From Candidatus Saccharimonadota bacterium (GTDB taxonomy: Bacteria; Patescibacteriota; Saccharimonadia; CAILAD01; BJGX01), in assembly GCA_046350735.1 (NCBI GenBank), contig JAXLZU010000001.1:384967-448966 (forward strand): 64,000 bases of DNA, written 5' to 3'. Of this stretch, positions 5,506-30,930 are shown piece after piece (within the stretch, counting starts at the first letter, position 1; each line of letters starts with the position of its first letter). The position numbers were made by a program, and so were the translations under genes. Under the pieces are notes generated by a model. That model was not told the DNA's origin and did no database searches. It saw nothing but the letters and a program-made list of their open reading frames with translations.

Positions 5506-5582
5506 AGGGGTGTAGCTCAGTTGGCTAGAGCGTCGGTCTCCAAAACCGAAGGCCGCGGGTTCGACTCCTGCCACCCCTGCCA
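5506..5582 (+). tRNA. tRNA-Trp (anticodon CCA)
   Basis: Acceptor AGGGGTG/CACCCCT. Anticodon stem TCGGT/ACCGA with loop cuCCAaa. T-arm GGTTCGACTCC. CCA end. Confidence 0.85.
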
Positions 5583-5671
5583 AATTAACCAGCATCGTCT
5601 GGTTTTTTATTACCTATTTTCTATCTTAGTTTGTTACCAATTATGGTACTATATACGTTAATATAAGCATT

Positions 5672-6736: not shown

Positions 6737-6775
6737 TCTCAATAGCCTAAGTTTTCCTATGGTATAATTATACTT

Positions 6776-14863: not shown

Positions 14864-15152
14864 TCAGTGTTACATAGCTGAGCAAAAACAGAAAAACGAA
14901 CTCTTCTATAGGTAGGTTTGGGGAGAAAATATGTAGTCCGGTAACATACCGTTGATTAGTAAAAAAAATCCCTAGTCTTATCCCAGCTAAATCTGCTAAT
15001 AGTAAAATAGCCATTAGGCAAGCAATGGTTTTTATAGCTGCTCTAGGCTGATAGAAAAATACAAGTTTTAGATAGGCATCGGCTAGTAATAGGCCGCTAA
15101 TTCCAACAAGCAAAACAAACAAGTAAAACCAATGCGAATAGACGATAATCAT
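14817..15152 (-). CDS. Lycopene-cyclase-domain protein (CrtYe/CrtYc-like subunit)
   Basis: 111 aa, 3 TM helices. Motif LPIEEFVFLF. Confidence 0.6.
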   Translation of the reverse strand: MIIVYSHWFYLFVLLVGISGLLLADAYLKLVFFYQPRAAIKTIACLMAILLLADLAGIRLGIFFTNQRYVTGLHIFSPNLPIEEFVFLFLLSYVTLIVYRLINPQGGQKNA

Positions 15153-15206
15153 ATAAGTAATTATACTCTAACCCCAACACTGTGATAGTCGTGTTATGAT
15201 AATTAA

Positions 15207-16694
15207 ATGAAAAAATCAGTCATTATTATAGGTGGTGGAATAGGTGGACTTTGTACGGCAGCGCGTCTGCTGAAGAATGGCTATGAGGTTACTATCTATG
15301 AAAAAGAAGATAAGGTTGGTGGCCGTGCTCATAGAATAGAAAAAAATGGCTATACTTTTGATACTGGACCAACACTGTTAATGATGACCGATGTACTCTA
15401 CGATACATTCTCATATTGTGGTAAAAATTTTGACGATTATATTACGCTCTTACAGCTAGAGCCGAATTACCGCGTAGCCTTTGGCGATAAAAGCAAGATT
15501 ACCGTTAGTAGCAACTTGCCAAAATTTCAGGCAGAACTTGCTAAGTTCGACCCTAAAGCACCAGAACAATTTTTGCGTTTCTTCTCCGATATTGCAGAGA
15601 TGTATCGTATCTCTCGAGCCGACTTTATCGATAAAAATTTTAATTACATAACTGATTTTCTCAATTTGCGCTCTGGTACTCAGTTATTGAGAAAACGAGG
15701 CCTAACCAAACTGTATCCATTTGTTTCGCGTTATTTTGACGATGAGCGTTTGCGTCAGTTATTTAGTTTTCAGAGTATGTATTTGGGCGTTAGCCCGTAC
15801 GAGGCCCCAGCAATTTACTCTATTGTTAGTTATATGGAGACGGGTCTTGGTATCTGGTATCCAAAAGGTGGTATGTACTCACTTAGCCTCGCCTTACAAA
15901 AGCTAGTAAAAGATCTGGGTGGCAAAATACGGCTTGGCACACCAGTCAAAAAAGTGTGTATAGAAGATAAAAAAGCTACAGGTGTAGAGTTAGAAACAGG
16001 CAGAACTCATAAAGCCAATATTGTAATAGCCAATGCCGATCTAGTATATGCGTATAAAAACCTTATTCCAGCAGAGAAGCGCAAAAAAATGCCAAATGCT
16101 CGGCTTGATAGCTACAAACAAGCTAGTTCGGCATTGCTATTTTATTGGGGAGTAGACGATGAGTGTAAAGATATGTTGCATCATAATGTGTATCTTTGCA
16201 AAGACTTTGAGGCCAACCTAGAACAAATCCTTACTAGCAAGAAGCTGCCTAAAGACCCATCATTTTACACATATATACCTACCAAGACAGACCCTAGTTT
16301 AGCCCCCAAAGGTAAGCAAGTATTTTATGTCTTAGTGCCGGTACCAAACCTAGAAGGCAAGAATAATTGGCAAAAGGGAATTAAAAAAATTCGAGAACAA
16401 GTCTTGGCTCGATTAAAAAGTGAATTTAATTTAGATATAGCACACAAAATAACCACAGAGACTATTTTTACCCCACAAGACTTTGCAGATAAATTTAACC
16501 TTACAAACGGTTCGGCATTTGGGTTGAGCCACCACTTCTTTCAGTCGGGTGCATTTCGGCCACACAACTATAGTAAAGAAATAGCCAATATGTACTTCGT
16601 GGGTGCCAGTACGTATCCAGGTGGTGGTATTCCTATGGTTACACTTAGTGCCAAGCTTGTAACGGAGAGAATTCTAGGCGATAATGGTCATTAA
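15207..16694 (+). CDS. crtI: Phytoene desaturase
   Basis: N-terminal FAD fold VIIIGGGIGGLCTAARL...IYEKEDKVGGRA. 495 aa, full-length CrtI-like. Located in the carotenoid cluster. Confidence 0.85.
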   Translation: MKKSVIIIGGGIGGLCTAARLLKNGYEVTIYEKEDKVGGRAHRIEKNGYTFDTGPTLLMMTDVLYDTFSYCGKNFDDYITLLQLEPNYRVAFGDKSKITVSSNLPKFQAELAKFDPKAPEQFLRFFSDIAEMYRISRADFIDKNFNYITDFLNLRSGTQLLRKRGLTKLYPFVSRYFDDERLRQLFSFQSMYLGVSPYEAPAIYSIVSYMETGLGIWYPKGGMYSLSLALQKLVKDLGGKIRLGTPVKKVCIEDKKATGVELETGRTHKANIVIANADLVYAYKNLIPAEKRKKMPNARLDSYKQASSALLFYWGVDDECKDMLHHNVYLCKDFEANLEQILTSKKLPKDPSFYTYIPTKTDPSLAPKGKQVFYVLVPVPNLEGKNNWQKGIKKIREQVLARLKSEFNLDIAHKITTETIFTPQDFADKFNLTNGSAFGLSHHFFQSGAFRPHNYSKEIANMYFVGASTYPGGGIPMVTLSAKLVTERILGDNGH

Positions 16695-16700
16695 TAAATT

Positions 16701-17777
16701 ATGGTAGATAAAAACTTAGTTGAGTTTATTGGCTATGTCAAAACAGAGACAGACAAGCGTCTGGATGAAATTTTTGATGCCAAAATTGCTCGTGCCGGCG
16801 AGCTCGACTCTGAATACAAAAAATTACTTATCGAGACAAAGAAACAGGTGTTGCGAGGTGGTAAGCGTCTTAGACCAGCCCTTGCCGTACTTGGCTATAA
16901 AATAGCTGGTGGTAAAAAGATAGAAACTATGCTTGACACTGCAGTTGCTTTAGAAATCTTTCATAATTATCTCTTAATTCATGATGATTTTATGGATAGA
17001 GATGACAGACGACATGGAGGTCTCAATATTACTGGTGTATATAAGAAAAAACTACAAAGGGTACTTAAGCCAAGTAATCTGCAACACATCGCCGATAGCC
17101 AAGCCATCTTAGCAGGGGACATATGTTGTGGACTAAGCTATGAGGTTATTACCCAGTCTGGCTTTGGCTCTGAGGCTAAACTGCGAGCAGTGGATAGACT
17201 AAACCAAGCAGTGTTTGAGGTTGCCGCCGGCCAACAGCTTGATATTTTAGCGAGTTTTATGCAGAAGGTATCGATGCGACATATTTTAAAAATTAACTAT
17301 TATAAAACGGCAGGATACTCGGTAATAATGCCATTACAGTTTGGTGCAATTTTGGCAGGAGATGGTGCTAAGCTACATCCAATTATCGAAGAGTACGGTG
17401 AAGGGGTGGGTATTGGCTATCAGCTAGTGGATGATGTAATTGGAATGTTTGGTAGCGAGAGAGTAATTGGCAAGCCAGTAATTTCGGATTTACGCGAAGG
17501 CAAACAAACACTTCTGTATTTTTACGGTATGGCATTAAGTAACAAGAGTCAGAAAGCCTTTCTAGAAAAGTCGTTTCGCAACCCAAATGCCAATATGGCG
17601 ATGCTAAAAGAAGTTAGGGCAATTCTCGAAGATAATGGCGCCAAAGCTAAGACACTTTTACTAGCCAAATCGAAGGCAGACGAAGCTACCAAAATAGCAC
17701 CCAAGCTAACGAGCAACCCAGAGTTGCAAAAGCTTCTTATTTCGTTTGCTAACTATTGTGTAGAGCGAAAGTATTAG
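16701..17777 (+). CDS. crtE: Polyprenyl (geranylgeranyl) diphosphate synthase
   Basis: First Asp-rich motif LLIHDDFMDRDD and second VDDVIG. GKRLRPAL start typical of trans-IPPS. Confidence 0.75.
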   Translation: MVDKNLVEFIGYVKTETDKRLDEIFDAKIARAGELDSEYKKLLIETKKQVLRGGKRLRPALAVLGYKIAGGKKIETMLDTAVALEIFHNYLLIHDDFMDRDDRRHGGLNITGVYKKKLQRVLKPSNLQHIADSQAILAGDICCGLSYEVITQSGFGSEAKLRAVDRLNQAVFEVAAGQQLDILASFMQKVSMRHILKINYYKTAGYSVIMPLQFGAILAGDGAKLHPIIEEYGEGVGIGYQLVDDVIGMFGSERVIGKPVISDLREGKQTLLYFYGMALSNKSQKAFLEKSFRNPNANMAMLKEVRAILEDNGAKAKTLLLAKSKADEATKIAPKLTSNPELQKLLISFANYCVERKY

Positions 17778-17778
17778 T

Positions 17779-18618
17779 ATGGACAATCAAAAACTTTACA
17801 GTCAGCTAGCCTACCAGACCAGCGGACGAGTTACGGCTGCGTATTCTACGTCCTTTTCATTGGCTATCACGCTAGTAGACAAGTCGATGAGGGCACATAT
17901 TTATGCGGTGTATGGGCTGGTAAGACTTGCTGATGAGGTAGTGGATAGTTTTCGTCCCCATGATTCTCGCCAGCTACTTGAAAAACTCGAGCACGAGGTT
18001 TATGCAGCTTTAGAATCTGGCTATAGTACTAATCTACTGATTCACTCATTTGCCACTACTGCAAAGACCTATAATTTTGAGCTTGGTTTGATACGAGCAT
18101 TCTTTGCTAGTATGCGCATGGATATTACCAAGACTAATTATACCCAGAGAGAGTATGAAGACTACATTTATGGCTCTGCCGAAGTCATAGGGCTAATGTG
18201 TTTGCATGTCTTTACAGATAATGACAGCTCATTGTATTCACGTCTACAACCTTCTGCACGGGCATTAGGCGCGGCATTTCAAAAGATTAACTTTCTACGA
18301 GATATGGCAGCCGATCATAATCAGCTAGGACGGATGTATTTTCCGAATGTTGTATTCGACAAGATGAGCCAAAAAAACAAAAAAGATATTATTGCAGATA
18401 TCTCGAAAGATATTCGAAAAGCCAGACGTGGTCTGGTAAGCTTACCCAAAAGTAGTCGATACGCAGTATTGCTTGCACTTTATTACTATGAGGCCTTAAT
18501 TAAACAGCTTAAAAAGGCGCCTGTCGAAACAGTCAAGACAAGGCGCTTACGTATATCAAATACTCATAAGCTATGGCTATATGTCTTGGTACGAATACAA
18601 AAGACCTTCAATGTTTAA
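17779..18618 (+). CDS. crtB: Phytoene synthase
   Basis: Squalene/phytoene synthase family (YAVYGLVRLADEVVD...; RDMAADHNQLGRMYFP). Tightly coupled after crtE. Confidence 0.85.
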   Translation: MDNQKLYSQLAYQTSGRVTAAYSTSFSLAITLVDKSMRAHIYAVYGLVRLADEVVDSFRPHDSRQLLEKLEHEVYAALESGYSTNLLIHSFATTAKTYNFELGLIRAFFASMRMDITKTNYTQREYEDYIYGSAEVIGLMCLHVFTDNDSSLYSRLQPSARALGAAFQKINFLRDMAADHNQLGRMYFPNVVFDKMSQKNKKDIIADISKDIRKARRGLVSLPKSSRYAVLLALYYYEALIKQLKKAPVETVKTRRLRISNTHKLWLYVLVRIQKTFNV

Positions 18619-18639: not shown

Positions 18640-20001
18640 ATGAAGAACCCCCGTTCAGAAGAAGAAATTACTGTCGATGGCATCCGTTATAATATTGCCA
18701 AAGGAAAAGTAGTAGAAGACGAAAATCTCCAACAACATGCACGTGGCCTAGATAGTATTCGCGGGCAACACCAGGTTACCGCTGAATCAGCTGGCCAGAA
18801 AAATGCGTTAGAGTCAAACCATTTACAGCAAGATGAAGCAGCTATTATTGATCTGCCCAAGCGCAAGCGTAAACGAGTAAAAAACCTAAAAAAGACCGTT
18901 GTTATAGACCCTACAATACCTAGTTATGGCAATTATTTTGCCAAGGCTCTTTTGCCGAGCGGGTTTTCGGCATCAGCCTGGATATTTAGTGTGTTGCGTG
19001 GCATTACCAGCCCACTTGCCTGGTTGTTAATAGCACTACCTATCATTATTTTGCAAACCCAAAACCTCGCTAATGAGAATATCAATCAGCTACTCGAAAA
19101 AGCACATCAACTAACCCAAAATGGCTTAGTTTTTCATGCCACAGGGCCAATCATTTTTGCTATAGTTTTTCCTGCAGCAATTATTTTTATTCGTGTAATA
19201 TGTAACGCAATTGCACTGCATTTGCGTATAACAATGCTTGCTGATCTGCCAGCTAGACTATGGCCAGCCACAAAGTTAGTGTTTCATAATAGTCTCAAGA
19301 TGTTATTACACGGCATACTACAAATATTCTTATTAGGTTTGGTAAGTATACTAGCGTTAATAACTATATTTTGGGCAATATTTATGCCTCACGGTCACAC
19401 ACTTACGGTATTCTCTCCCTATATTGTTGGGTTGGTTATTTTTATCTGGCTGGTACTACTTTGTCTATTACATGCCAAACATTGGTTGCAATCAGCAATC
19501 CTCTCAAGCAGCTTAAAAACCTCTGCAATTCAACGCCGTAGCTGGGAAGCTGTTGCTGCATATCCGCTGCGTAGCAGTATATTGGCGGCGACTAGTTTTG
19601 TATTATCATTCGGTATTATTGTGTATGGTGTCTGGGCGGCACTCAGAGCAATTAGTTGGCTCAATCGTAGCGTCGTACCATCGAACACTCGGTTTGTTCT
19701 GCTGATGAGTAGTATATTTTTGGGTGTAGTGCTGGTGGGGTACATCCAACAGACTCTTTGGAGTGCTTATGCTAGTTGGCTTAATACACAATACACACCA
19801 AGTCTGTTTGCGTTGACAAAAGAATCAGAAATTAAGCGAACCGCCTGGTGGCCTATTTGGGTATCTACCTACCTTTTTGTTATGACGCTCTCGCTTATAG
19901 CGCTTGGTATTATTTTTGTTTTACCAGTAGTTAATACTTGGGCGGTAAGTATCTCACATAAAATACCTAACAAAATTGAAATCCCTCGGTTTGATAAATA
20001 G
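18640..20001 (+). CDS. Polytopic membrane protein of unknown function with a ~110-aa hydrophilic N-terminus
   Basis: At least 8 hydrophobic segments. No recognisable motif. Confidence 0.4.
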   Translation: MKNPRSEEEITVDGIRYNIAKGKVVEDENLQQHARGLDSIRGQHQVTAESAGQKNALESNHLQQDEAAIIDLPKRKRKRVKNLKKTVVIDPTIPSYGNYFAKALLPSGFSASAWIFSVLRGITSPLAWLLIALPIIILQTQNLANENINQLLEKAHQLTQNGLVFHATGPIIFAIVFPAAIIFIRVICNAIALHLRITMLADLPARLWPATKLVFHNSLKMLLHGILQIFLLGLVSILALITIFWAIFMPHGHTLTVFSPYIVGLVIFIWLVLLCLLHAKHWLQSAILSSSLKTSAIQRRSWEAVAAYPLRSSILAATSFVLSFGIIVYGVWAALRAISWLNRSVVPSNTRFVLLMSSIFLGVVLVGYIQQTLWSAYASWLNTQYTPSLFALTKESEIKRTAWWPIWVSTYLFVMTLSLIALGIIFVLPVVNTWAVSISHKIPNKIEIPRFDK

Positions 20002-21021: not shown

Positions 21022-21456
21022 ATGGCAGAAGCAAAAAAAGCAATCGCGAAAGTTAAGATGGTGCTACCGGGTGGCGGTGCAACGCCTGCACCACCAGTTG
21101 GCTCTAATCTAGGTCAGCATGGAGTAAACATGATGGATTTTATCAATCCATTTAACGAGCAGACCCAAGATAGAAAAGGACAGCCCACCCCGGTAATGGT
21201 AACGATTTACGAAGACAAATCGATGACATTTGTTATTAAAGGTACACCAGCCAAAGTGCTTATTAAAGAAGCGCTAAAGCTAAAAAAAGGTTCTGGCGTG
21301 CCTAACAAAGATAAAGTAGGTAAACTAACCGACGCTCAGCTTACTCAAATTGCTGAAGCAAAAATGCCCGATCTTAATGCAAATGATATTGATGCTGCTA
21401 AGAAAATTATTGCTGGCACAGCCCGTGCAATGGGTGTTGAAGTAGAAAAAAAATAA
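21022..21456 (+). CDS. rplK: 50S ribosomal protein L11
   Basis: ATPAPPVGSNLGQHGVNMMDF... corresponds to the canonical L11 N-terminal region. 144 aa. Confidence 0.95.
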   Translation: MAEAKKAIAKVKMVLPGGGATPAPPVGSNLGQHGVNMMDFINPFNEQTQDRKGQPTPVMVTIYEDKSMTFVIKGTPAKVLIKEALKLKKGSGVPNKDKVGKLTDAQLTQIAEAKMPDLNANDIDAAKKIIAGTARAMGVEVEKK

Positions 21457-21510: not shown

Positions 21511-22467
21511 ATGGCAGAAGCAAAAAAAGCAAAAGCTAAGAAGCAAGAAGAAGTAACAGCTGAAGTTACAGAAGCTAAAAAGAAAACTACTACCAAATCT
21601 GCAGTAAAACCAACTGAAGTTATTGCCAAAGCTGGTAAGCGCAGCAAAAAAGTGCAAGAGGCCGAAGCTGAAAAGGTAGCCAAAGAAGCCAAGAAGGCAG
21701 AAGGTAAGGCCAAAGCAGCAACTGAAGCTGAAAAACCAAAGCCAGTACAGAAGCCACATGTAGTAAAATATAGTAAGAATCAAAAAGCAGCCCGTGCTTT
21801 ATTAGAAAAAGACAAGCTATATTTATTATCTGAAGCAGTAGATCTTTTACCTAAACTGTCTAAAGTAAAATTTGATGCTACTGCAGAACTACACGCTACA
21901 CTCAATATCGATCCCAAACAGGCTGACCAAATGGTACGTGCAGCCGCCGCCCTGCCAGCTGGTACAGGCAAAACTGTTCGAGTTGCAGTATTAGCAGGAG
22001 ACAAAGACGCAGCCGAGGCTAAAAAAGCTGGTGCCGACATTAGCGATGCCGCAGAGCTACTTAGCGCAATTAGTAAGGGTAAATTCGATTTTGATATTTT
22101 GGTGGCCACACCAGAAAAGATGCCAGAGCTTGGTCGTTATGCCAAGACACTCGGCCCTAAAGGCTTAATGCCTTCACCAAAGAGTAACACAGTTACCGCC
22201 AAGCCGGCCGAAGCCATTGCTGAGATCAAAAAAGGTCGAGTAGAGCTTAAAAATGATCCTTCAGGTATTGTTCATACTAGCTTTGGTAAGCTTAGCTTCT
22301 CTAGCAAAGACCTACTAGCCAACCTAAAATCGATTCTCTCGGCTCTACAAAATGCCCGACCAACCGGTGTAAAAGGTGTGTATATTAAATCTCTCTATAT
22401 ATCTTCGTCAATGAGCCCATCAATTAAACTAGACGTTACCGAAGCTATAAAAGAAGCCAAGAGCTAA
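21511..22467 (+). CDS. rplA: 50S ribosomal protein L1 with an ~85-aa Lys/Ala/Glu-rich N-terminal extension
   Basis: The L1 core starts around KYSKNQKAARALLEKDKLY... The first 85 aa are a low-complexity KAE repeat. 318 aa versus ~230 typical. Confidence 0.9.
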   Translation: MAEAKKAKAKKQEEVTAEVTEAKKKTTTKSAVKPTEVIAKAGKRSKKVQEAEAEKVAKEAKKAEGKAKAATEAEKPKPVQKPHVVKYSKNQKAARALLEKDKLYLLSEAVDLLPKLSKVKFDATAELHATLNIDPKQADQMVRAAAALPAGTGKTVRVAVLAGDKDAAEAKKAGADISDAAELLSAISKGKFDFDILVATPEKMPELGRYAKTLGPKGLMPSPKSNTVTAKPAEAIAEIKKGRVELKNDPSGIVHTSFGKLSFSSKDLLANLKSILSALQNARPTGVKGVYIKSLYISSSMSPSIKLDVTEAIKEAKS

Positions 22468-22490
22468 GAAAATACTCCAGTTTAACTAAA

Positions 22491-22516
22491 AACAGCCCAA
22501 TAACCGGGCTGTTTTT
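22491..22516 (+). terminator. Intrinsic terminator after rplA
   Basis: aacagccc-aataacc-gggctgtt followed by TTT. Confidence 0.6.
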
Positions 22517-22587
22517 AGTTATGCTTGGTGGTTAATCGATTTGTTTGCTAAGCTAATAGAGACCTCGTACCTCTACAAGGAGCCAAT

Positions 22588-23205
22588 ATGGCTATAGAAG
22601 CTGGAATTTTCAGTAATGGTTCGTGTTTTGATGAAAGATACATCCCCGATTTTGCAGAGTTAGCAAGACTGGTTAATCATATGAAGGGTATTGGCCTTAA
22701 AATTGTACTTACCTCAGGGTCTTTTGATTTTTTCCATCTTGGACATGCTCTTTATCTCGAGAAGGCACGCGAAAAGGGCGATGTCTTGATTGTGGGAGTC
22801 GATAGCGATGCAAAAATTGCTCGCAAGAAGGGACCAAATAGGCCATTATATCCACAGCTAGAGCGCTTACAGATTTTGGTTCGCCAGCGATCGGTGGATA
22901 TTGTTACTCTCAAAGAAGATACCGAAGAAAAGTGGGTGCTAATTAAGGCACTGCGACCAGATGTTTTAATTGCAACCCAAGAAACGTATTCAGATGATGA
23001 GCTAGAGCAATTGAAAGAATTTTGTGGCTCGGTGACAGTTCTAGAGCCCCAAGCCCAAACGTCCACTAGCAAGCGCTTGCGCGATCTCAACCTGGAGTTG
23101 GCAAGTGACATTGGCGAGAGACTTGCTGATCGCATTCCTGGTTTGCTTCAAGAAGTGCTCGATGATGCGGTTGGTCGACATGACAAGCCTAAGGCTCAGC
23201 CATGA
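22588..23205 (+). CDS. Cytidylyltransferase-like nucleotidyltransferase (RfaE-domain-II/TagD-like fold)
   Basis: GSFDFFHLGH (HxGH motif) and TSTSKRLRD (ISSTxxR-like). 205 aa. Confidence 0.55.
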   Translation: MAIEAGIFSNGSCFDERYIPDFAELARLVNHMKGIGLKIVLTSGSFDFFHLGHALYLEKAREKGDVLIVGVDSDAKIARKKGPNRPLYPQLERLQILVRQRSVDIVTLKEDTEEKWVLIKALRPDVLIATQETYSDDELEQLKEFCGSVTVLEPQAQTSTSKRLRDLNLELASDIGERLADRIPGLLQEVLDDAVGRHDKPKAQP

Positions 23206-24041
23206 CAACGGCCCTTGTGCTTTATATGCCTGTTATCCATACGTCTTATTTAGAGTTAATTGATAGTCAACGCTGGGATGAGATATTTATTATGGATAAT
23301 AGATTGGCTGTAGAGCTTGTTAATAATCTTCGTAAAGATCTTCGTGCACTTAACGCAGAGACAGTAAGGTCGTTCTTGGTTCGCCGAGATGGTGCTCGAC
23401 CGGTTTTTGTAGTGTCTAGCAATACTATAATTTTCGATCAGGTAACCCAATTTGTACTGCCAGACGAAGACGTTAGTCGAGCCTTTGCTGATAAATATTT
23501 GCGAGGTAGTCAAATAGAGTTTAGAAATGTCTTTTTGCGTTATGATAAAAAGAGAACTACTGAGCTATTTCAACCTCAACCAGACGAAGTAGTTACATCT
23601 GAGCAACTTGCTCAGGTAATGATGGCACGTTGTGATGAGCTGGCGGCTAAGAGCCCCGACTGGTGGCGTCAAGTTGGCGGCCTTATTGTTAAAGACGGTG
23701 TGGTACTAGAAAAACTACAGATGTTTAATGAGGCAAAACCATTTGGTATGGCGCCATACGAGCTTGGCGATCCGCGTAGTAACTTTAGTAAGGGTGTAAA
23801 ACCAGAATTAAGCCTGGTATTGCATGTCGAGCAAGGCTTGGTTAGTCGGGCAGCGCGACTAGGTATTGCACTTGAGGGCGCAGATCTCTACGTAAGTACC
23901 TTTCCGTGTCCCTGGTGTGCAACGGCTCTGGCGTATAGTGGCATCAAGCGAGTTTTTTATCGAGATGGCTATGCCATGCTAGATGGTGAGGAAATACTTA
24001 GAAGCAACAATGTTGAGTTAATCCGTGTCGTAGATGTATAA
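23202..24041 (+). CDS. Protein with a C-terminal CMP/dCMP-deaminase zinc-binding domain and a ~140-aa N-terminal domain of unknown function
   Basis: HVE...PCPWC zinc-ligand motifs (LHVEQG; STFPCPWCATALAYSGIKRVFY). ATGA overlap with the upstream nucleotidyltransferase. Confidence 0.6.
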   Translation: MTTALVLYMPVIHTSYLELIDSQRWDEIFIMDNRLAVELVNNLRKDLRALNAETVRSFLVRRDGARPVFVVSSNTIIFDQVTQFVLPDEDVSRAFADKYLRGSQIEFRNVFLRYDKKRTTELFQPQPDEVVTSEQLAQVMMARCDELAAKSPDWWRQVGGLIVKDGVVLEKLQMFNEAKPFGMAPYELGDPRSNFSKGVKPELSLVLHVEQGLVSRAARLGIALEGADLYVSTFPCPWCATALAYSGIKRVFYRDGYAMLDGEEILRSNNVELIRVVDV

Positions 24042-24046
24042 AAATA

Positions 24047-24071
24047 CCCCGATCAATCGAATTGATCGGGG
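24047..24071. terminator. Bidirectional intrinsic terminator between the convergent deaminase and folA-HIT genes
   Basis: Perfect 11-bp stem ccccgatcaat-cga-attgatcgggg. Flanked by AAAAAT upstream and CTTTTGTT downstream. Confidence 0.7.
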
Positions 24072-25039
24072 CTTTTGTTATCTTGAGGTACAGAACTCAT
24101 TTTAAATCGGACTGGTTGATGCTCTGGATTGTCCACATCACCAACTTTAATGTGTGCATGTAAGTGGGCAACACTTCCACCGGTACGGCTCATGTCACCA
24201 AATCGCATACCAAGAGCACCATATTCCAAACCAAATTTAGCTATCGCTGCATTTAATGCATTACCAAAGTCTTGCTGCTCTGCTAGAGTAAGTCTAGCAA
24301 AATGCTCAACATGTCGATTTGGAATAAGCAATATATCATGAACAGTACCTGTATAAGGATTGTCATTCTTGGTAATAACCCAATGGTCGGTTTCTAGAAC
24401 AATAGGATTATCGTGGTACCAGTCTAGCCACTCAGGACAGAATGGGCAGACACCATCATTAAGAATTTCTTCCATATAACCAGCCTGGTTGTCAAACCGA
24501 GCGGCCGGCAAGTACAGAAGTGGTCGAGTAAGAGAGCTACTATCCACAGGCGCATACTCCAACCAAACATATTCTAGACCTGTCTTTTCGTCAGTTTCAA
24601 TATCACCATATTCTACAACTTTCCATTTTTCTGGCGGGGTAAATGGAAAGAACGCATCACCATTTTCAATTACTGTATTTACTAGAGTTATATGGATCAT
24701 ATCTACCTTACCGCTATCTAGTGCGGCTTGATAGATTCTTTCACCACCAATAATGTCAATATCTTTATCTGGCCAGTCAGCAGCAACTTCTAGTGCTTTC
24801 TCGAAGCTATTAACAGTCCAGACATCTTCAGCAGAAGTAGCAAAAGTACTTGAGACCACAATATTTACTCTATTAGGTAGTGGCTTGCCGATGCTTTCAA
24901 AGGTTTTGCGACCCATAATTACCACATGCCCACTTGTAAGTTGCTTAAACCAACGGAGATCTTGTGGCAAATGCCACGGGATCTGACCGTCTTTACCAAT
25001 CACACGATTACGGCTACGAGCCGCAATTACGCGAATCAT
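24053..25039 (-). CDS. folA: Dihydrofolate reductase fused to a C-terminal HIT (histidine-triad) domain
   Basis: N-terminal DHFR (MIRVIAARSRNRVIGKDGQIPWHLPQDLRWFKQLTSGHVVIMGRKTFESIG). C-terminal HIT with CPFC and HLHAHIKV (HxHxHxx) motifs. 328 aa. Confidence 0.75.
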   Translation of the reverse strand: MIRVIAARSRNRVIGKDGQIPWHLPQDLRWFKQLTSGHVVIMGRKTFESIGKPLPNRVNIVVSSTFATSAEDVWTVNSFEKALEVAADWPDKDIDIIGGERIYQAALDSGKVDMIHITLVNTVIENGDAFFPFTPPEKWKVVEYGDIETDEKTGLEYVWLEYAPVDSSSLTRPLLYLPAARFDNQAGYMEEILNDGVCPFCPEWLDWYHDNPIVLETDHWVITKNDNPYTGTVHDILLIPNRHVEHFARLTLAEQQDFGNALNAAIAKFGLEYGALGMRFGDMSRTGGSVAHLHAHIKVGDVDNPEHQPVRFKMSSVPQDNKSPDQFD

Positions 25040-25995
25040 GGCAACACCGGAATTTCGCTAATCGGCTCGTGAGGATCATAGTTGGAAAGCATAAACAGCC
25101 CACCATGCAGTTTGTGAATCGCTTCGCTGTCATGTGGCACGGGCGGACTCCATTCGAAGACATCAGGGCCAAAGCGCATATTCGGTAAGCGTCGAGGCTC
25201 ACGTTCTAACATGCGCTCGACGTATTGCATTTGCCCCTCGTAGATATGCGCATCGACAATGTAGTGAATATACTCACCTGGCTCGTAGCCAGTAAGAGTA
25301 CAAAGTAATAGCATCAGCGCTGCATATTGTACTAAGTTGCTAGGCACACCAATCGGCACATCACCACTGCGTTGCTTCATATGTAGATTAAGCTTGCCAT
25401 TGAGAATTCGTACTTGCACCCAGCCATGGCACGGGGCAATAGTGGCTTTGTTAAGTCTACCAGAGTCACGAGCCAGCCCGGCACTGTGCCAAGGGCTAAC
25501 CACATGCGTACGATCATTAGGGAACTCAGTAATCTGTTGCACGAGATGTGCAAACTGATCATATGAGCTACCGTCGAAGTCTGGCCAATCATGAAACATC
25601 GGCCCATAACTTGCCGGGCCGATATCACCAGTAGGCAAGCCACGCTTGCTACACTTGGCCTCGGTACCCCAATCACTCCACCAATTAACCCCCCAGTATT
25701 CAAATGCTTCGATTGTATGTACACCATTTATCATGGCACCAAGCTCGTTAATGGCCTTGCGCCAGAATGCAATCTTTCGCTCGGTAATGAGTGGAAAACC
25801 ATCACGCAAAATATCAAAGCGCATTTGTACACCAAGCAGTGTTTTAGCACGCTCTCCCTGGCGGGTAACCTCGCTCCACTGACCTCGATCCATAATTGCT
25901 GCTAAGACATCTCTGTATTGTGTATTTGGTTCACGTTCTTCATAGGGCAAATAATCGAGCTTTAGGTATCCCATGCAAGAAACCCTTTCTGTCAA
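25036..25995 (-). CDS. thyA: Thymidylate synthase (ThyA family), unusually long (319 aa) and divergent
   Basis: Active-site IAPCHGW. QRSGDV. PSNLVQY, which keeps the dUMP-specifying Asn. HIY. Insertions relative to the 264-aa E. coli enzyme. ATGA-coupled to folA-HIT. Confidence 0.8.
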   Translation of the reverse strand: MTERVSCMGYLKLDYLPYEEREPNTQYRDVLAAIMDRGQWSEVTRQGERAKTLLGVQMRFDILRDGFPLITERKIAFWRKAINELGAMINGVHTIEAFEYWGVNWWSDWGTEAKCSKRGLPTGDIGPASYGPMFHDWPDFDGSSYDQFAHLVQQITEFPNDRTHVVSPWHSAGLARDSGRLNKATIAPCHGWVQVRILNGKLNLHMKQRSGDVPIGVPSNLVQYAALMLLLCTLTGYEPGEYIHYIVDAHIYEGQMQYVERMLEREPRRLPNMRFGPDVFEWSPPVPHDSEAIHKLHGGLFMLSNYDPHEPISEIPVLP

Positions 25996-26090
25996 AGACC
26001 ACCTCTGTAGGTCTGCTCGATTGTACTATATAGACCACAAACCTGTAAAGTGATAGAATTGTGCCAGCACCTACTAAAATGTGAGGGAAC

Positions 26091-26573
26091 ATGACCGATA
26101 CTCAAATAGTTCCAGTGGTCTCGTGGGATGAAATTCAAAAATTCTTGCCAAGAATTCAAATGGGTGTAAGTAGTGAAGCAATAATGCCGGTTTTCGTACA
26201 AGATCTTACATTGTGCTTTGATCTAGATAGACAAGAATTTGTACTAAGTCGGGATAGGTTTGGTTATTTGCCGGCTGATGAAGTTCGTCGTAATGACATT
26301 CATCAGCTTGAAGTAGGATTAACAAAATTTCTGATTCAGTATTACCAAGGCGAGCTCGAAGCTGCTGTACGGGCTGCAACATATCAAATGTTTTTGCAGC
26401 TTTGTAAGCAGATTCCATACCCTCAAGGCTGCCAATGTGGAAATTATCCCCACGGCCAGGCACTCGACTGTCACGTGCATATGGATAATCCGTGCCACTT
26501 CTTTGACGACTTCAACTTCACCTGCACCTGCGACGAGCAGAAAGAGGCCAAAAATGCCGCACATTCATCCTGA
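26091..26573 (+). CDS. Hypothetical protein with a Cys/His-rich C-terminus
   Basis: CQCGNYPHGQALDCHVHMDNPCHFFDDFNFTCTCDEQ metal-binding-like cluster. Overlaps the NUDIX start by 20 nt. Confidence 0.4.
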   Translation: MTDTQIVPVVSWDEIQKFLPRIQMGVSSEAIMPVFVQDLTLCFDLDRQEFVLSRDRFGYLPADEVRRNDIHQLEVGLTKFLIQYYQGELEAAVRAATYQMFLQLCKQIPYPQGCQCGNYPHGQALDCHVHMDNPCHFFDDFNFTCTCDEQKEAKNAAHSS

Positions 26574-27051
26574 GCTTGATTTTTGCGCCGTAACTTACAT
26601 TGTGAATGATAACAAAGTGTTGCTATGTCATCACATCAAACTTGGGGTCTGGGTACCGCCAGGTGGGCATGTTGAACCTGGTGAAACCATTGATGCTGCC
26701 CGCGACCGAGAAAACTACGAAGAGACTGGGCTCGATGTCACCATCATCGGGCCAAAACCAGGCTTTGTAATTGCAGGTATGGAGCCGCTAGTGGCACCGC
26801 GTTACACTGATGTGCACCCAATTGCTTGCGAGTTTCCCAATCACCGCCACCAGGCATTTGTGTACTTTGGCACAGTCGATGTGCGTAACGAAGTTTTGCA
26901 AGAAGACGAGCACCATGAACTGCGCTGGTTTTCTATGCACGATCTCGAGCGCTATCATGACCCAGAAGCGCCGATTCCAGACAATGTTTCTTGGTATGCA
27001 AGCGTTGCCCTCGAAGAGCTGGGGTACCATGGGGCGATGAGGATTTTTTAG
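26554..27051 (+). CDS. NUDIX hydrolase
   Basis: Nudix box GGHVEPGETIDAARDRENYEETGL. Start chosen at the ATG with the SD sequence aaagagg, at 26554, rather than the upstream track ORF. Confidence 0.8.
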   Translation: MPHIHPELDFCAVTYIVNDNKVLLCHHIKLGVWVPPGGHVEPGETIDAARDRENYEETGLDVTIIGPKPGFVIAGMEPLVAPRYTDVHPIACEFPNHRHQAFVYFGTVDVRNEVLQEDEHHELRWFSMHDLERYHDPEAPIPDNVSWYASVALEELGYHGAMRIF

Positions 27052-27091
27052 CCAGATAGGCAACTATCTGGTTTTTTTATATAATAAAGCT

Positions 27092-28327
27092 ATGAATCAA
27101 ATTCAAAAACTTACGGACACCGAAAACGAGCGGCAAAAAAGTACTCTAAATTTAATTGCGTCAGAAAATTATCCGAGCCCCAAGGCTTTGACACTTCTTG
27201 GCTCTATTTGGAACGATAAGTATGCCGAGGGTTATCCTGGTAAACGCTATTACGCAGGCAATGTAAATGCCGACAGTCTCGAAGAATTTGTTCAGACTAA
27301 GGCACTAGAAGTGTTTGATGCCCGAGAAGATTATGGTGTAAATGTACAGGTACTGTCTGGTAGTCCGGCAAACGCAATGGTGTATTTTACAGTTTTGGAG
27401 CCTGGTGACACCATACTTAGTCTTAACCTCACTAGCGGTGGACATCTTAGTCATCTTCATACTACCAGTAGCTATATTAAGTTCTTTAAGCATGCTACAT
27501 ATAATTTGCGCGGTACTAAGTTGCATGAGGCCGAGTTTGAGCTAGCTTTAAGAGAGCACAAGCCACGTCTGGTGGTGATAGGATTTAGTAGTTATCCTGC
27601 TCAATACGAGTTTGCCCAGCTGTGTAAGTTGGCTCACGAATATGGCGCACTAGTATTAGCCGATATTAGTCATATAGCTGGACTGGTTGCAACAGGTAAT
27701 CATTCATCTCCCTTTGCACGCGGTGCCAGTGGGGCAGATTTTGTAACTACCACCACACACAAAACCTTGCGTGGTCCGCGCTCGGGTTTGCTTTTTGCTA
27801 GAAAAGAATATATGCCCGCTATAAATAAAACGGTCTTTCCTGGTACTAGCGGCGGCCCACATCTCAATCAAATAGCTGCAGTTGGCCAGAGTCTACTAGA
27901 AGTGCTTGGTGAGGATGCGTATCCAGACAAAATTTTGTTTGGTAAGTATATAGAAAACGTTGTAAAGAACGCCAAAGCCTTAGAGACTGGGCTAAAAAAA
28001 GCCGGGGTACATGTTAGTACACCAACTTCTACGCATTTAGTTTTGGCGAAATTGCCAGAAGAAGTAGACAGCCTAACTCTGCAAAACGATCTCGAAGAGG
28101 CTGGGATTATTACTAATCGCAATGCTATACCAGAAGATAGTAAATCTGTTTGGCGCCCGGGTGGTTTGCGTCTAGGGAGTGCCGCACTTACTTCTAGAGG
28201 AATGAAGGGCGAGAATTTTTTAACTCTTGGCGAGGCTATAGGTGGTTTAGTAATTGGCACACTAACCAAGACCGAGCTAAGTACTATTAGTAAGCAGCTA
28301 CAAAAAGAACTTCATTGGTACTATTAG
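27092..28327 (+). CDS. glyA: Serine hydroxymethyltransferase
   Basis: PLP-site TTTTHKTLRGPRSG. Typical SHMT N-terminus. 411 aa. Confidence 0.95.
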   Translation: MNQIQKLTDTENERQKSTLNLIASENYPSPKALTLLGSIWNDKYAEGYPGKRYYAGNVNADSLEEFVQTKALEVFDAREDYGVNVQVLSGSPANAMVYFTVLEPGDTILSLNLTSGGHLSHLHTTSSYIKFFKHATYNLRGTKLHEAEFELALREHKPRLVVIGFSSYPAQYEFAQLCKLAHEYGALVLADISHIAGLVATGNHSSPFARGASGADFVTTTTHKTLRGPRSGLLFARKEYMPAINKTVFPGTSGGPHLNQIAAVGQSLLEVLGEDAYPDKILFGKYIENVVKNAKALETGLKKAGVHVSTPTSTHLVLAKLPEEVDSLTLQNDLEEAGIITNRNAIPEDSKSVWRPGGLRLGSAALTSRGMKGENFLTLGEAIGGLVIGTLTKTELSTISKQLQKELHWYY

Positions 28328-28405
28328 TATAATTAGTTGTATAAAGTCTAAAAACCTGATATAAATAAGATTGCACCTTAAGTAAGTCTCATGGAGGAGA
28401 ATGAC

Positions 28406-28483
28406 ATGTACTGGAGATACATGTGGAAAGAAATTATCTGTGATCTCTTTGCGGGTGAATGGAAATCGTTAATTTGCCGCTAA
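28406..28483 (+). CDS. Candidate 25-aa peptide MYWRYMWKEIICDLFAGEWKSLICR
   Basis: Strong SD sequence GGAGGAG 7 nt upstream of the ATG. Rich in Trp/Tyr/Met/Cys. No homolog recognised. Confidence 0.25.
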   Translation: MYWRYMWKEIICDLFAGEWKSLICR

Positions 28484-28520
28484 TTTAGTTATAGAGTTGG
28501 CTAAATGAAGAGGGGGAGAA

Positions 28521-28937
28521 ATGGCTACCAAAGGCTCGGTATACGTTGCCGGCAAAGTTGGTGCTGGTACAGATAGTGTAAAGCATCTCCTTACTCAATT
28601 AGAAGACATGGGTTATGAGGTAGCATATGACTGGACAGAAGCTACAGGTGTTAAGAAGCCGTATCTAGAGAATGCCTTACGTAATCGGCCATTTGCCGAG
28701 AAAATGCTTCAAGGAGCAGGTAGCTCTAATATTATTATTCTACTTGTACAAGATAATATTCTTGGTGCATTAATTGAATTTGGTATAGCACTTGGCAATA
28801 GCCTGATGGAAGCCAACTTTCGTGCCTTTGTGGTGACAGAAGGCGTAGAGACACTGAGAGAGTCAATCTTCTACTGCCTAGAAGAAGTTACTATTGTAGG
28901 TACTCTCGACGAATTACTTACTTTGCTCAAAGACTAG
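28521..28937 (+). CDS. Nucleoside 2-deoxyribosyltransferase-like (NDT/DNPH1-fold) protein
   Basis: VYVAGKVG N-terminus and QDNILGALIEFGIALG resembling the NDT catalytic-Glu motif (DSGTAFEIG). Weak. Confidence 0.35.
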   Translation: MATKGSVYVAGKVGAGTDSVKHLLTQLEDMGYEVAYDWTEATGVKKPYLENALRNRPFAEKMLQGAGSSNIIILLVQDNILGALIEFGIALGNSLMEANFRAFVVTEGVETLRESIFYCLEEVTIVGTLDELLTLLKD

Positions 28938-29018
28938 TCTTTGAGCTTTTTCTTTATTTCGTTATAGAACAGAATAGGAACTTCTTATCTGTAACTGGGT
29001 TGACTAAAATGCTGATAT

Positions 29019-29189
29019 TTGCTATTATTACTACTGATTACCAAAGACTGTGGCTGTGTAATACACTTAATTTGCTACAAGAGGTTACGATCGATACAGA
29101 TTGTTTACAAACCAGAAGTCTTTGGCGTTTGCTCAAAGGCTTTTTGTTTGGTAGTCGCAAGCACATTAACTAAAGAAGGTGTTAAACAT
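29019..29189 (+). promoter_or_regulatory. Long 5' leader of the rplJ-rplL operon (position of the L10 autoregulatory leader)
   Basis: ~200-nt noncoding gap upstream of the true rplJ ATG. The track ORF spanning it is spurious. Established operon architecture. Confidence 0.4.
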
Positions 29190-29726
29190 ATGGCAAAAAC
29201 ACGAGAGCAGAAAGAACAAGCTGTTAGCGCGCTAACAGAAGCTTTTTCTGCAAGTAAACTTGCTGTGTTAACAGATTACCGTGGCTTGAATGTCCCAGAA
29301 ATTTCTGCTTTGCGTGCCAATTTGCGCGAGGCTGGCATTCCATTTACGGTAGCCAAGAACACACTCGTAAAGATAGCGCTTGTCAACGCCGATAAGAAGG
29401 TAGAAGATACTTCAGCCCTGACGGGTCCAGTAGCAATTGCTTTTGGACCTGACGAAGTCGAAGCTGCCAGAATTGTCTTTGAATATGCCAAGACTAACCC
29501 GGCATTAGAGATTCTCGGAGCAATTGACGAAAACGGCAAAGTGTTGAGTACCGATGACGTTGTTGCTTTAGCCAAACTACCAAGCCGCGAGCAATTGTTG
29601 GCACAAGTAGTTGGTACCGTAGCTGCTCCACTCAGTGGATTTGTACGGGTACTTAACGGTAATGTTTCGGGCTTAGTGTATGCATTACAGGCCGTGGCAG
29701 ACAAAAAAGCGCAAGAAACTAGTTAG
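29190..29726 (+). CDS. rplJ: 50S ribosomal protein L10
   Basis: MAKTREQKEQAVSALTEAF...LTDYRGLNVPEISALR is a typical L10 N-terminus. SD-spaced ATG at 29190. Confidence 0.9.
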   Translation: MAKTREQKEQAVSALTEAFSASKLAVLTDYRGLNVPEISALRANLREAGIPFTVAKNTLVKIALVNADKKVEDTSALTGPVAIAFGPDEVEAARIVFEYAKTNPALEILGAIDENGKVLSTDDVVALAKLPSREQLLAQVVGTVAAPLSGFVRVLNGNVSGLVYALQAVADKKAQETS

Positions 29727-29758: not shown

Positions 29759-30232
29759 ATGGCAGAAGAAACTGCAAAACCAGAAGTAAAAGAAGAAGCT
29801 CCAGCTACAGAAGCTGCTGCAGAAGTAACCGAAGACAAAAAAGAAGTACCTGCTAAGTTTAAAAGCTTGGTAGACGAAATTGACAAACTAAGTGTGCTCG
29901 ACCTTTCAGAATTTGTAAGCGTTCTAGAAGATCACTATGGCGTAAGCGCTGCTGCTCCAGTAGCTGTAGCTGCTGCTGGTGGCGCTGCTGCTGGTGGCGA
30001 AGAAGCCGCCGAAGAAGGCAAGAGTAGCTACAACATTATGCTTACCGCTGCCGGCGATAAGAAAATTGATGTAATTAAGGCTGTTCGTGAAATCTCAGGT
30101 CTTGGTTTGGCCGAAAGTAAAGAAGTAGTAGATAGTGCTCCTAAGATGGTAAAAGAAGATGTTCCTGCCGAAGAAGCAGAAGCAGCTAAGAAAACTCTCG
30201 AAGAAGCTGGTGCTACTGTAGAACTTCAATAA
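29759..30232 (+). CDS. rplL: 50S ribosomal protein L7/L12 with an extended Ala-rich hinge
   Basis: Conserved C-terminal domain [34 protein letters not shown]...EAGATVEL. Confidence 0.95.
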
Positions 30233-30277: not shown

Positions 30278-30360
30278 TTTGGCTTTTGTTTTATACTTTG
30301 TTACAATAAAAGCAAGTAATTTTGAGTAATTTTAGTAAAAATACAAAAAGGGGCTATAAA

Positions 30361-30930
30361 ATGAACAAAAAAGACGACGAAAAATTGCAGGCACTTTCAG
30401 ACCAGATGCATGCTGCACAAGAGAGCTTGCAGCAAGTAACAGAAATGTTAAAACAAATGGGTCTAAATGCCAAAGACCTTCCAGAGCCACGTGATGATGC
30501 AACACCTTCTGTTGGTGTTAGTGTACCCCGAGCTGCTGATACTGCCGATACTGTGGCAGGTAAGGTAATAGAAGGGCACTTTGATGGTCAGAATATGATT
30601 GGCCCAGACGGCAAAACGTATCCGGTACCTGCTAATTATGCATCTAAATCAAAACTTGTAGAGGGTGACTTGCTTAAACTAACTATTGCTGCCGATGGTA
30701 GTTTTATTTACAAACAAATTGGCCCAGTAGAACGAAAAAAACTAATTTCTAAGATTGGGTTAGATAATGGTCAGTTTGTAGCGATTGTGGGTGATCATCA
30801 TTATCGTGTATTGTATGCCAGTGTAACGTATTTTAAAGCTCAGGTGGGCGACGAAGTAACTATTGTAGTTCCAGCCACCGGTGGCGATGAGGCTAACTGG
30901 GCGGCTATAGAAGCTGTTATCGGCTCATAG
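30361..30930 (+). CDS. Hypothetical protein occupying the position where rpoB normally follows rplL
   Basis: SD sequence aagggg before the ATG at 30361. No recognisable motif. Confidence 0.4.
   Translation: MNKKDDEKLQALSDQMHAAQESLQQVTEMLKQMGLNAKDLPEPRDDATPSVGVSVPRAADTADTVAGKVIEGHFDGQNMIGPDGKTYPVPANYASKSKLVEGDLLKLTIAADGSFIYKQIGPVERKKLISKIGLDNGQFVAIVGDHHYRVLYASVTYFKAQVGDEVTIVVPATGGDEANWAAIEAVIGS

Follow-up and report, generated by a model that had tools for sequence, protein, structure and literature searches.

Between the ribosomal-protein genes rplA and rplJ of a Candidatus Saccharibacteria genome lies a block of 6.4 kb that carries predicted enzymes of thymidylate synthesis. We analysed this block within a 64,000-nucleotide stretch of DNA (the window), whose proteins are identical to the deposited MFO0862525-32 of a Candidatus Saccharibacteria metagenome-assembled genome; the same contig structure has been assembled independently in several samples. 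In order, the block comprises genes for a cytidylyltransferase (CTase) and a two-domain deaminase, a convergent pair encoding a dihydrofolate reductase (DHFR)-HIT fusion and thymidylate synthase (ThyA), a Cys/His-rich open reading frame (ORF), a NUDIX hydrolase, glyA, a mini-ORF and an NDT-like ORF of 138 aa (Table 1). The ORFs listed in an earlier reading of this DNA, made from its letters alone (the sequence-only reading), were all found where it had placed them, and every domain call held in ORF listing and profile searches. The block is likely to be the organism's own housekeeping locus for thymidylate rather than a foreign island, with a core of CTase, deaminase, HIT, DHFR and ThyA and with glyA nearby.

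Table 1 Features of the rplA-rplJ slot and its boundaries. Model cut-offs are given in brackets after bit scores.
Feature	Position	Strand	Basis and remarks
rplK	21022-21456	+	Pfam Ribosomal_L11_N/L11; upstream boundary of the slot
rplA	21511-22467	+	Pfam Ribosomal_L1; 318 aa; upstream boundary of the slot
Intrinsic terminator 3' of rplA	22480-22524	+	Hairpin then T-run; direct reading and RNA fold
CTase (cytidylyltransferase family)	22588-23205	+	PF01467, 61.4 bits (21)
Two-domain deaminase (Xdeam)	23202-24041	+	Pfam dCMP_cyt_deam_1 on residues 138-253; 279 aa
Bidirectional terminator	24046-24072	both	Terminator-like hairpins on both strands, 11-12 pairs
DHFR-HIT fusion	24053-25039	-	Pfam DHFR_1 and HIT
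HIT half, aa 166-328	24053-24544	-	PF01230, 30.9 bits (21.5)
DHFR half, aa 1-165	24545-25039	-	DHFR_1 (PF00186), 168.5 bits (25)
ThyA, 319 aa	25036-25995	-	PF00303, 200.8 bits (24.3)
Cys/His-rich protein, 160 aa	26091-26573	+	Lineage-restricted orphan; overlaps the NUDIX gene
NUDIX hydrolase	26554-27051	+	PF00293, 66.2 bits (21.1); 165 aa as called in public assemblies
Terminator ahead of glyA	27050-27073		
Promoter-like site ahead of glyA	27057-27085	+	
GlyA (serine hydroxymethyltransferase)	27092-28327	+	NF000586, 374.6 bits (335)
Mini-ORF, 25 aa	28406-28483	+	Trp-rich, MYWRYMWKEIICDLFAGEWKSLICR; between glyA and the NDT-like gene
NDT-like protein, 138 aa	28521-28937	+	NDT superfamily via relatives
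Terminator at end of NDT-like ORF	28925-28946		
rplJ leader, L10_leader	29023-29155	+	Rfam RF00557, full-length model match
rplJ	29190-29726	+	Pfam L10; downstream boundary of the slot
rplL	29759-30232	+	Pfam L12; downstream boundary of the slot

The sequence-only reading had described the block as a thymidylate module, and dCMP deaminase, ThyA, DHFR and serine hydroxymethyltransferase (SHMT) were each recognised in it. The route is assigned by enzyme family and catalytic motif. ThyA scored above the cut-off of the thymidylate synthase equivalog TIGR03284 (151.4 bits; cut-off 108.35), and its alignment to PDB 6auj showed APCHGW, with the catalytic Cys of the PCH motif, GVPSNLVQYA and VDAHIY (DxHxY). 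The uracil-specifying Asn (the position of N177 in E. coli) is kept in the QRSxDVxxGxPxN motif. The ThyA stop codon overlaps the start of the DHFR-HIT gene; the two are translationally coupled. In the DHFR half the catalytic Asp lies in the PxDLxWF motif, which reads LPQDLRWF here; folA genes from the candidate phyla radiation (CPR) are able to complement the loss of folA in E. coli (PMC11974145). The pyridoxal phosphate-lysine motif of GlyA, TTTTHKTLRGPR (THK), was read directly. DHFR and SHMT are each canonical.

For the deaminase, 491 full-length homologues were found, about 276-290 aa long and named as Saccharibacteria, Sungbacteria, Paceibacterota, Kaiserbacteria, Yanofskybacteria and Parcubacteria. 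Its HxE and PCxxC zinc site (H208, E210, P235, C236 and C239) was invariant in 41 sequences. An AlphaFold2 model reached a predicted local distance difference test score (pLDDT) of 83, and the top 15 Foldseek matches of the C-terminal domain were all dCMP deaminases, including 4p9e/4p9c, 2hvw, 2w4l, 1vq2 and 7fh4; the matched enzymes came from cyanophage S-TIM5, S. mutans, human, T4 and PBCV-1. With 35.6 bits against TIGR02571 (cut-off 219.45), the protein falls short of the ComEB equivalog level, and it departs from the single-domain architecture of dCMP deaminases by an additional conserved N-terminal domain. Against the anti-phage dCTP deaminase model NF041025 it scored 42 bits (cut-off 400), with about 65 residues of the zinc core aligned.

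On these assignments, the deaminase domain would convert dCMP to dUMP, and ThyA would convert dUMP to dTMP with 5,10-methylene-tetrahydrofolate (methylene-THF), releasing dihydrofolate. DHFR would reduce dihydrofolate to tetrahydrofolate (THF), and SHMT would reload the one-carbon unit from serine, turning THF into methylene-THF.

Conservation of the cluster across Patescibacteria

As a control, 80 rplA loci from species-representative genomes, 75 from outside the Patescibacteria and five from within, were scored with small hidden Markov models (HMMs). The premise of the sequence-only reading that rplK, rplA, rplJ and rplL are normally contiguous proved sound, as rplJ-rplL directly followed rplA in 71/75 of the non-Patescibacteria loci. 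Contiguous rplA-rplJ occurred in none of the five Patescibacteria loci (0/5), where genes of deoxynucleotide metabolism followed rplA instead. The closest GTDB relative (locus L001, RplA 58% identity) had the order rplA-Dcd-ThyX-glyA-rplJ-rplL (Dcd, dCTP deaminase; ThyX, flavin-dependent thymidylate synthase), followed by the same ~190-200-aa protein as in the window and by dnaX; its GlyA, in the same slot, is an orthologue with 57% identity. In L002, rplA was followed by Dcd and then by a Tmk-ThyX fusion, and in L003 and L008 by dUTPase. Neither L001 nor L002 carried CTase, HIT, deaminase, ThyA or DHFR within 10 kb. The presence of Dcd-ThyX(-glyA) in the same slot of other Saccharibacteria looks like a non-orthologous swap in place; displacement between the non-homologous thyA and thyX is well known (PMC9931769). 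Two of the proteins involved were unusually long, namely the ThyX of L001 (11903-13579; 558 aa, with two Thy1 stretches) and the Tmk-ThyX fusion of L002 (7640-9973; 777 aa).

Closer to the window, the two loci with 80% identical deaminases (L087 and L088) had an identical gene order between rplA and rplJ, accessory genes included. Two further loci, L089 and L091 (deaminase identity 55% and 43%), retained rplK-rplA-CTase-deaminase-<DHFR/HIT-<ThyA-glyA-rplJ-rplL (< marks genes on the opposite strand), and the Cys-rich, NUDIX and NDT-like genes were all missing from them. Three distant CPR loci (L092-L094; a groundwater CPR contig, an 881-kb contig and a Sungbacteria contig) had CTase-deaminase-<HIT-<ThyA with DHFR nearby, and 2/3 of them adjoined rplK or rplA. 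In the neighbourhoods of relatives the module travels as a unit and splits rplKA from rplJL, in support of the sequence-only reading. Dispersed genes beside a contiguous rplKAJL were looked for in relatives as a refutation, and the opposite was found.

This arrangement was maintained in a survey of 80 further metagenome loci with the long deaminase, which were retrieved by a profile scan of contigs, scored with HMMs and judged from homologue names to be mostly Patescibacteria. The core order was near-invariant: CTase, then the deaminase (a HUP-like N-terminal domain joined to the dCMP deaminase domain), convergent with HIT, DHFR (where placed there) and ThyA. The CTase gene immediately preceded the deaminase gene in 66/68 survey loci and was nearby in the other two. 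HIT was convergent and downstream of the deaminase in 64/64, a count that takes in four loci flagged by the script as lacking HIT where the convergent genes overlap slightly. ThyA was found within 4 kb in 46/46, and DHFR within the locus in all of the fully flanked ones (26/26). Both the CTase-deaminase order and the deaminase-HIT-ThyA order were fixed, often with overlapping stop and start codons. Other neighbours, namely glyA (present in 11/26), dUTPase (10/26) and Tmk (7/26), varied freely among loci, as did even the position of DHFR. The cluster usually stood beside nusG-rplK(-rplA), with rplK and nusG each present in 18/26 loci. NUDIX, NDT-like and Cys-rich genes were absent from the fully flanked loci (0/26). 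With one gene order repeated in dozens of loci that are independent and deeply divergent, the arrangement goes far beyond chance, and by gene neighbourhood the core is a conserved cluster of the Patescibacteria (CPR) in the nusG-rplK-rplA/rplJ-rplL region, with glyA nearby. A search of the literature found no description of this gene cluster.

Two variations were observed among the survey loci. The HIT gene was duplicated in tandem between deaminase and ThyA in L115, L123, L127, L134, L135, L142, L149, L160, L161, L168 and L170. In many Parcubacteria-type loci (L108, L109, L113, L116, L120, L128 and others) the cluster directly followed rplK and no rplA was detected in the flanks. Ribosomal protein L1 has reportedly been lost in some CPR groups, which may account for these flanks.

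The sequence-only reading had described the block as inserted inside the ribosomal-protein operon. The block is no peculiarity of one genome; the arrangement is phylum-wide and the composition native-like. By GC content at third codon positions (GC3), the block genes did not stand out from the genome, apart from NUDIX (0.50; background 0.36 +/- 0.045; +3 standard deviations) and, mildly, ThyA (+2 standard deviations). The position of the block is kept down to 43% protein identity in Saccharibacteria and recurs beside rplK or rplA across the CPR; judged by synteny and composition, the block is a lineage-wide arrangement and not a recent insertion. We consider it very unlikely that the block, as a whole or at least in its accessory part, arrived recently as a mobile, phage-derived or defence island. 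The GC content raised from ThyA to NUDIX, the confinement of NUDIX, Cys-rich and NDT-like genes to the nearest relatives and the frequency of deaminase, NUDIX and NDT/TIR-like folds in defence systems would fit such an island. However, neither an integrase or transposase nor tRNA or repeat boundaries were found, and the conserved position of the core speaks against it.

Three more specific readings were rejected. A recent-island origin of the core conflicts with synteny and native-like composition. For a phage origin of the module, the PHROG matches were to generic enzyme families, and the full-length deaminase occurred in only 1 of 2.9 million viral contigs, with neither HIT nor ThyA nearby. 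A defence-system reading rested on partial PADLOC matches (the deaminase core hit the dCTPase model, and the NUDIX box hit PDC-S07; 67/630 profile positions), which cover catalytic core motifs only, with no system membership; the low NF041025 score (42 bits; cut-off 400) also speaks against it. For the accessory genes alone, recent acquisition is likely.

Candidate roles of the cytidylyltransferase, deaminase and HIT proteins

The sequence-only reading had listed the HIT and nucleotidyltransferase domains as extras of no obvious role; of all the partners that the deaminase and ThyA have, these proved the most strictly conserved. The CTase carries the HxGH motif (FHLGH in the window) and the motif TSTS, and G52, H53 and T158-S159-T160 were invariant in a 7-sequence alignment. 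Its stop codon overlaps the start of the deaminase gene. Scores were below all equivalog cut-offs compared (rfaE_dom_II, 103.4 vs 181.5; TagD, 39.8 vs 165.4; CoaD, 14.2 vs 103.3), and against the PDB the family profile matched ECT (3elb, 8e-31), HldC (5x9q, 7e-26), TagD and CCT.

The HIT half of the fusion contains CPFC and HLHAHI. Across 34 sequences of the family, C-x-x-C, H78, H127 and H129 were invariant, with H or Q at the third triad position; a GalT-like HxHxQ was present in some members. The nearest PDB matches of the profile were Hint-like proteins (1.6e-8), with weak matches to Fhit, Ap4A phosphorylase and GalT. By blastp, the HIT half was homologous to stand-alone genes of 157-159 aa at the same position in L092 (1e-35) and L093 (1e-24), which are unannotated and lie between deaminase and ThyA. 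DHFR-HIT was the only gene fusion seen among the cluster loci.

The N-terminal 125-130 residues (approximately) of the deaminase matched no sequence family in profile searches, and a PDB sequence search with the profile of this domain gave no match. Modelled alone (pLDDT 88; predicted template-modelling score 0.79), the region forms a small Rossmann-like domain whose best structural matches were HldC (5xf2) and TagD (1coz), both of them HIGH-signature nucleotidyltransferases from the family to which the adjoining CTase also belongs. After strand 1, the family has the motif Y-x-P-V-x-H-x-G-Y in place of HxGH. Among 41 sequences, 35 had HxGY, five another H-x-x-Y variant and one HAGH; the window has HTSY. 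According to these models, the domain is likely a degenerate nucleotidyltransferase-like domain.

We propose, tentatively and as a rather doubtful possibility, that the CTase, the deaminase with its N-terminal domain and HIT together feed dUMP from the dCTP pool, replacing the function of Dcd. The CTase would cleave (d)CTP at the alpha-beta bond, and the dCMP moiety, free or in a dCDP-linked intermediate, would be handed to the fused deaminase by way of its CTase-like N-terminal domain, for which a pseudo-dimer with the CTase is envisaged. HIT would then release the nucleoside monophosphate from the adduct. CTase, deaminase and HIT would thereby be the counterpart of Dcd in the Dcd-ThyX relatives. 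Nucleotidyltransferases cleave nucleoside triphosphates at the alpha-beta bond and HIT enzymes free nucleoside monophosphates from their adducts, and these family chemistries make the scheme plausible.

A related observation comes from a 158-kb putative phage contig (L175, IMGVR_UViG_3300037483_001116), which carries the CTase and long-deaminase pair at 4553-6806. A Tad3 (Thoeris inhibitor) gene lies immediately upstream of the pair, and neither HIT nor ThyA was found within 6 kb on either side. That a hitherto unrecognised three-component route through a covalent or (d)CDP-linked intermediate is universal in ThyA-type Patescibacteria, and has been borrowed by at least one large phage, would be a still bolder claim, which we regard as unlikely.

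The CTase and HIT could instead be unrelated passengers of an operon order inherited in streamlined genomes; this is the main alternative, possible if somewhat unlikely. The CTase would then be, for example, an envelope CDP-glycerol or CDP-alcohol synthase and HIT a generic nucleotide hydrolase, leaving a route of dCMP deaminase, ThyA, DHFR and SHMT. This is consistent with the nearest matches of the CTase (the envelope and lipid cytidylyltransferases ECT, TagD, CCT and HldC), with those of HIT (generic Hint-like proteins) and with the fact that neither protein is required by any known thymidylate pathway. However, the core pairs are fixed in 64-68 of 68 loci while the other neighbours shuffle. 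This invariant adjacency argues that CTase and HIT work with the deaminase and ThyA, as do the repeated fusion of HIT to DHFR and the joint disappearance of these genes from the locus where Dcd/ThyX replaces the cluster. The putative phage contig, which has the CTase-deaminase pair alone, likewise argues that the CTase works with the deaminase. Were the two proteins passengers, the finding would shrink to an unusual but ordinary operon arrangement.

Several points weigh against a shared function, and against the wider reading of the locus. With the deaminase as survey bait, all co-occurrence figures are conditional on its presence. The swap with Dcd/ThyX was seen in two loci with 10-kb flanks, and the phage instance is a single contig covered for 6 kb per side. 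The CTase lies as close to heptose-1-P adenylyltransferase as to phospho-alcohol cytidylyltransferases, which points to no particular nucleotide or acceptor. For the deaminase N-terminal domain, the matches to HldC and TagD were weak (probability 0.94-0.98, template-modelling (TM) score ~0.56, E ~0.05), and hhalign against the CTase family aligned HxGY with HxGH at a non-significant probability of 0.8%. ThyA has one Arg (DRT) at the dUMP-phosphate site where E. coli has two (RR). The roles given here to CTase and HIT are what we infer from sequence and gene context.

Much of bacterial diversity belongs to the Patescibacteria (CPR), which have no de novo nucleotide synthesis; the few pathways they retain define what must come from hosts. 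The cluster described here indicates that a fixed set of genes, embedded in the ribosomal-protein/NusG region, encodes the dTMP supply of these bacteria, and that in this set a cytidylyltransferase and a HIT protein, without a place in textbook thymidylate metabolism, are as strictly conserved as ThyA. It opens a way into a step of pyrimidine deoxynucleotide metabolism that has yet to be assigned, with Dcd-ThyX in the same slot of some Saccharibacteria as a natural experiment. It may also point to lineage-specific targets in organisms that are difficult to study by other means.

Accessory genes and flanking features

The remaining genes of the block are of narrower distribution. The Cys-rich ORF, the mini-ORF and the NDT-like gene were found only in the closest relatives, and NUDIX one step wider. 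The Cys/His-rich protein had no match in Pfam, NCBIfam, PHROG or PADLOC and no lead in the PDB; its homologues amounted to only three clusters among 5.8 billion, and its gene was not found in L089, L091 or the survey loci. In the NUDIX hydrolase, the Nudix box GHVEPGETIDAARDRENYEETGL was read directly and is intact, with N at one U position of GX5EX7REUXEEXGU; no equivalog cut-off was reached. NUDIX occurred in L087, L088 and L095, whereas L089 and L091 lacked it, as did all of the fully flanked survey loci (26/26). The sequence-only reading had made it the entry step of the pathway; since it is missing from relatives that share the core, it cannot be a general first step. The same applies to the NDT-like and Cys-rich genes, which are missing from these core-bearing loci too.

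The mini-ORF is preceded by a strong ribosome-binding site (GGAGGAG, 28393-28399) and its reading frame is preserved in L087 and L088, where the changes are synonymous or conservative; it could encode a small protein or a leader peptide. NUDIX, NDT-like, Cys-rich and mini-ORF are probably recent, clade-restricted additions with roles in nucleotide sanitation or salvage.

The NDT-like protein of the window itself had no Pfam match. It has six close homologues, and an exhaustive profile search gave 412 relatives. Among 56 aligned relatives, 13 matched PF05014 (Nuc_deoxyrib_tr; best 6e-10) and seven matched TIR_2; the NDT-like label probably holds at the level of the superfamily. Tyr8 and Glu86, the latter at the nucleophile position, were at least 90% conserved in the family. 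Against the PDB, the profile gave weak matches to the CMP N-glycosidase MilB (4jen, E 0.0065) and to NDTs (0.07). Separately, a protein of 2009 aa (P0130) matched residues 15-67 of the NDT-like profile in 20 stretches (E 3e-31) and looks like a giant array in which this segment is repeated.

These matches bear on an alternative raised by the sequence-only reading, a nucleotide-modification pathway. In such a case the module would make a modified pyrimidine nucleotide for DNA modification, such as 5-hydroxymethyl-dUMP or a further derivative. The ThyA homologue would be a hydroxymethylase, and its product would be processed by HIT, CTase and the NDT-like protein. ThyA homologues and NDT-like N-glycosidases are paired in nucleoside-antibiotic pathways (MilA/MilB), and MilB is the best PDB match of the NDT-like profile. 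In addition, the deaminase core is nearest to phage dCMP deaminases and the cluster contains unexplained nucleotide-handling enzymes. However, ThyA still has its catalytic Cys and the Asn that specifies uracil, and it lies above the TIGR03284 cut-off (151 vs 108 bits). DHFR, which is needed only if dihydrofolate is produced, as in true methylation, is always co-conserved (26/26), and the NDT-like gene is missing from almost all core-bearing loci. Of the enzymes typical of hypermodification pathways, neither a 5-hydroxymethyldeoxyuridine kinase nor a glycosyl- or aminoacyl-transferase was found in the cluster with Pfam and PHROG. We regard this alternative as highly improbable.

Both boundary features of the slot that the sequence-only reading had described were recovered, namely a terminator belonging to rplA and a long leader of rplJ. 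The rplA terminator (-24.4 kcal/mol, z = -8.9; equally stable shuffles 0/200) has the GC core of its stem at 22492-22498/22506-22512 and its T-run at 22512-22516. It was not called by a consensus terminator scanner, probably on account of an upstream A-run that lengthens the stem into the T-run. The L10_leader match only marginally exceeded its gathering score (44.4 vs 44 bits), and a promoter-like site precedes leader and rplJ at 29000-29028. As rplJL retains its own L10 autoregulatory leader, the ribosomal genes would still be expressed as two units. Within the block, the bidirectional terminator is common to the convergent CTase-deaminase and ThyA-DHFR/HIT operons, and a divergent promoter region separates ThyA from the Cys/His-rich ORF. 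From these signals, the genes are arranged as separate short predicted operons with their own promoter-like sites and terminators.

The wider flanks, by Pfam, hold secE, nusG, rplK and rplA upstream and rplJ, rplL and dnaX downstream. RplA has a Lys/Ala/Glu-rich N-terminal extension of about 85 aa (21511-21770), with the Pfam L1 match beginning at residue 115; its length in relatives is likewise 298-335 aa. A conserved protein of about 190-200 aa without a Pfam match lies between rplL and dnaX (30322-30930) and is also found in L001, L087, L089 and L091. Upstream of secE is a conserved 453-aa protein (18640-20001) with long hydrophobic, apparently membrane-spanning stretches and no Pfam match. 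Just upstream of secE-nusG, a carotenoid-type cluster (12523-18618) encodes a fusion of a UbiA prenyltransferase and a GT2 glycosyltransferase (677 aa), two small lycopene-cyclase-type subunits, a CrtI-like desaturase, a polyprenyl synthase and a phytoene/squalene synthase. This arrangement is repeated in L087, L089 and L091 and is similar to actinobacterial C50-carotenoid clusters, which is unexpected in a CPR genome.

Comparison with known systems

With the canonical bacterial thyA-folA(-glyA) cycle, the cluster shares ThyA, DHFR and SHMT with their catalytic motifs, and adjacent, coupled thyA and folA; thyA-folA synteny has been noted before (PMC11974145). It differs in its place inside the rplKA/rplJL region, in a DHFR fused to or followed by HIT, and in the constant company of a cytidylyltransferase and a two-domain deaminase. 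Fusion of thymidylate-cycle enzymes is also seen in the bifunctional DHFR-TS of protozoa and plants, which suggests channelling; here the partner of DHFR is HIT and not ThyA.

The deaminase shares the HxE/PCxxC zinc site and the fold of dCMP deaminases (ComEB/DCTD; T4 Cd, S-TIM5 and PBCV-1 bi-DCD), with TM scores up to 0.83 on target. It adds a domain of about 125 aa at the N-terminus and an invariant, family-specific GDPR loop, and its substrate may be dCMP, dCTP or an adduct. Similarly, relatives of the 138-aa protein match PF05014 of the NDT/DNPH1/MilB superfamily and share a conserved Tyr and the Glu at the nucleophile position, whereas the protein itself lacks a Pfam match, is much smaller than typical members and is confined to one clade; it may act as a transferase or as a hydrolase.

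The CTase has the HxGH and ISTS-type motifs of ECT, TagD and HldC, with ECT as its best PDB match (8e-31), but falls below the equivalog cut-offs and stands in a context of thymidylate rather than envelope synthesis. ECT consists of two tandem CT domains that form a pseudo-dimer, and this may serve as a model for the pairing of the CTase with the deaminase N-terminal domain. In phage T4, the dCTPase gp56 and dCMP deaminase act in sequence, dCTP being converted to dCMP before deamination, and the putative phage CTase-deaminase pair parallels this couple, although gp56 belongs to an unrelated enzyme family. An animal/eukaryotic route from dCTP through dCDP-choline or dCDP-ethanolamine to dCMP likewise has a CDP-alcohol intermediate that releases dCMP, but in a context of lipid synthesis. 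Both routes parallel the logic of the scheme proposed above for CTase, deaminase and HIT.

Finally, the Dcd-ThyX route occupies the same slot after rplA in L001 and L002 and leads to the same end product. Its enzymes are unrelated and require no DHFR, CTase or HIT; five genes here stand against two there.

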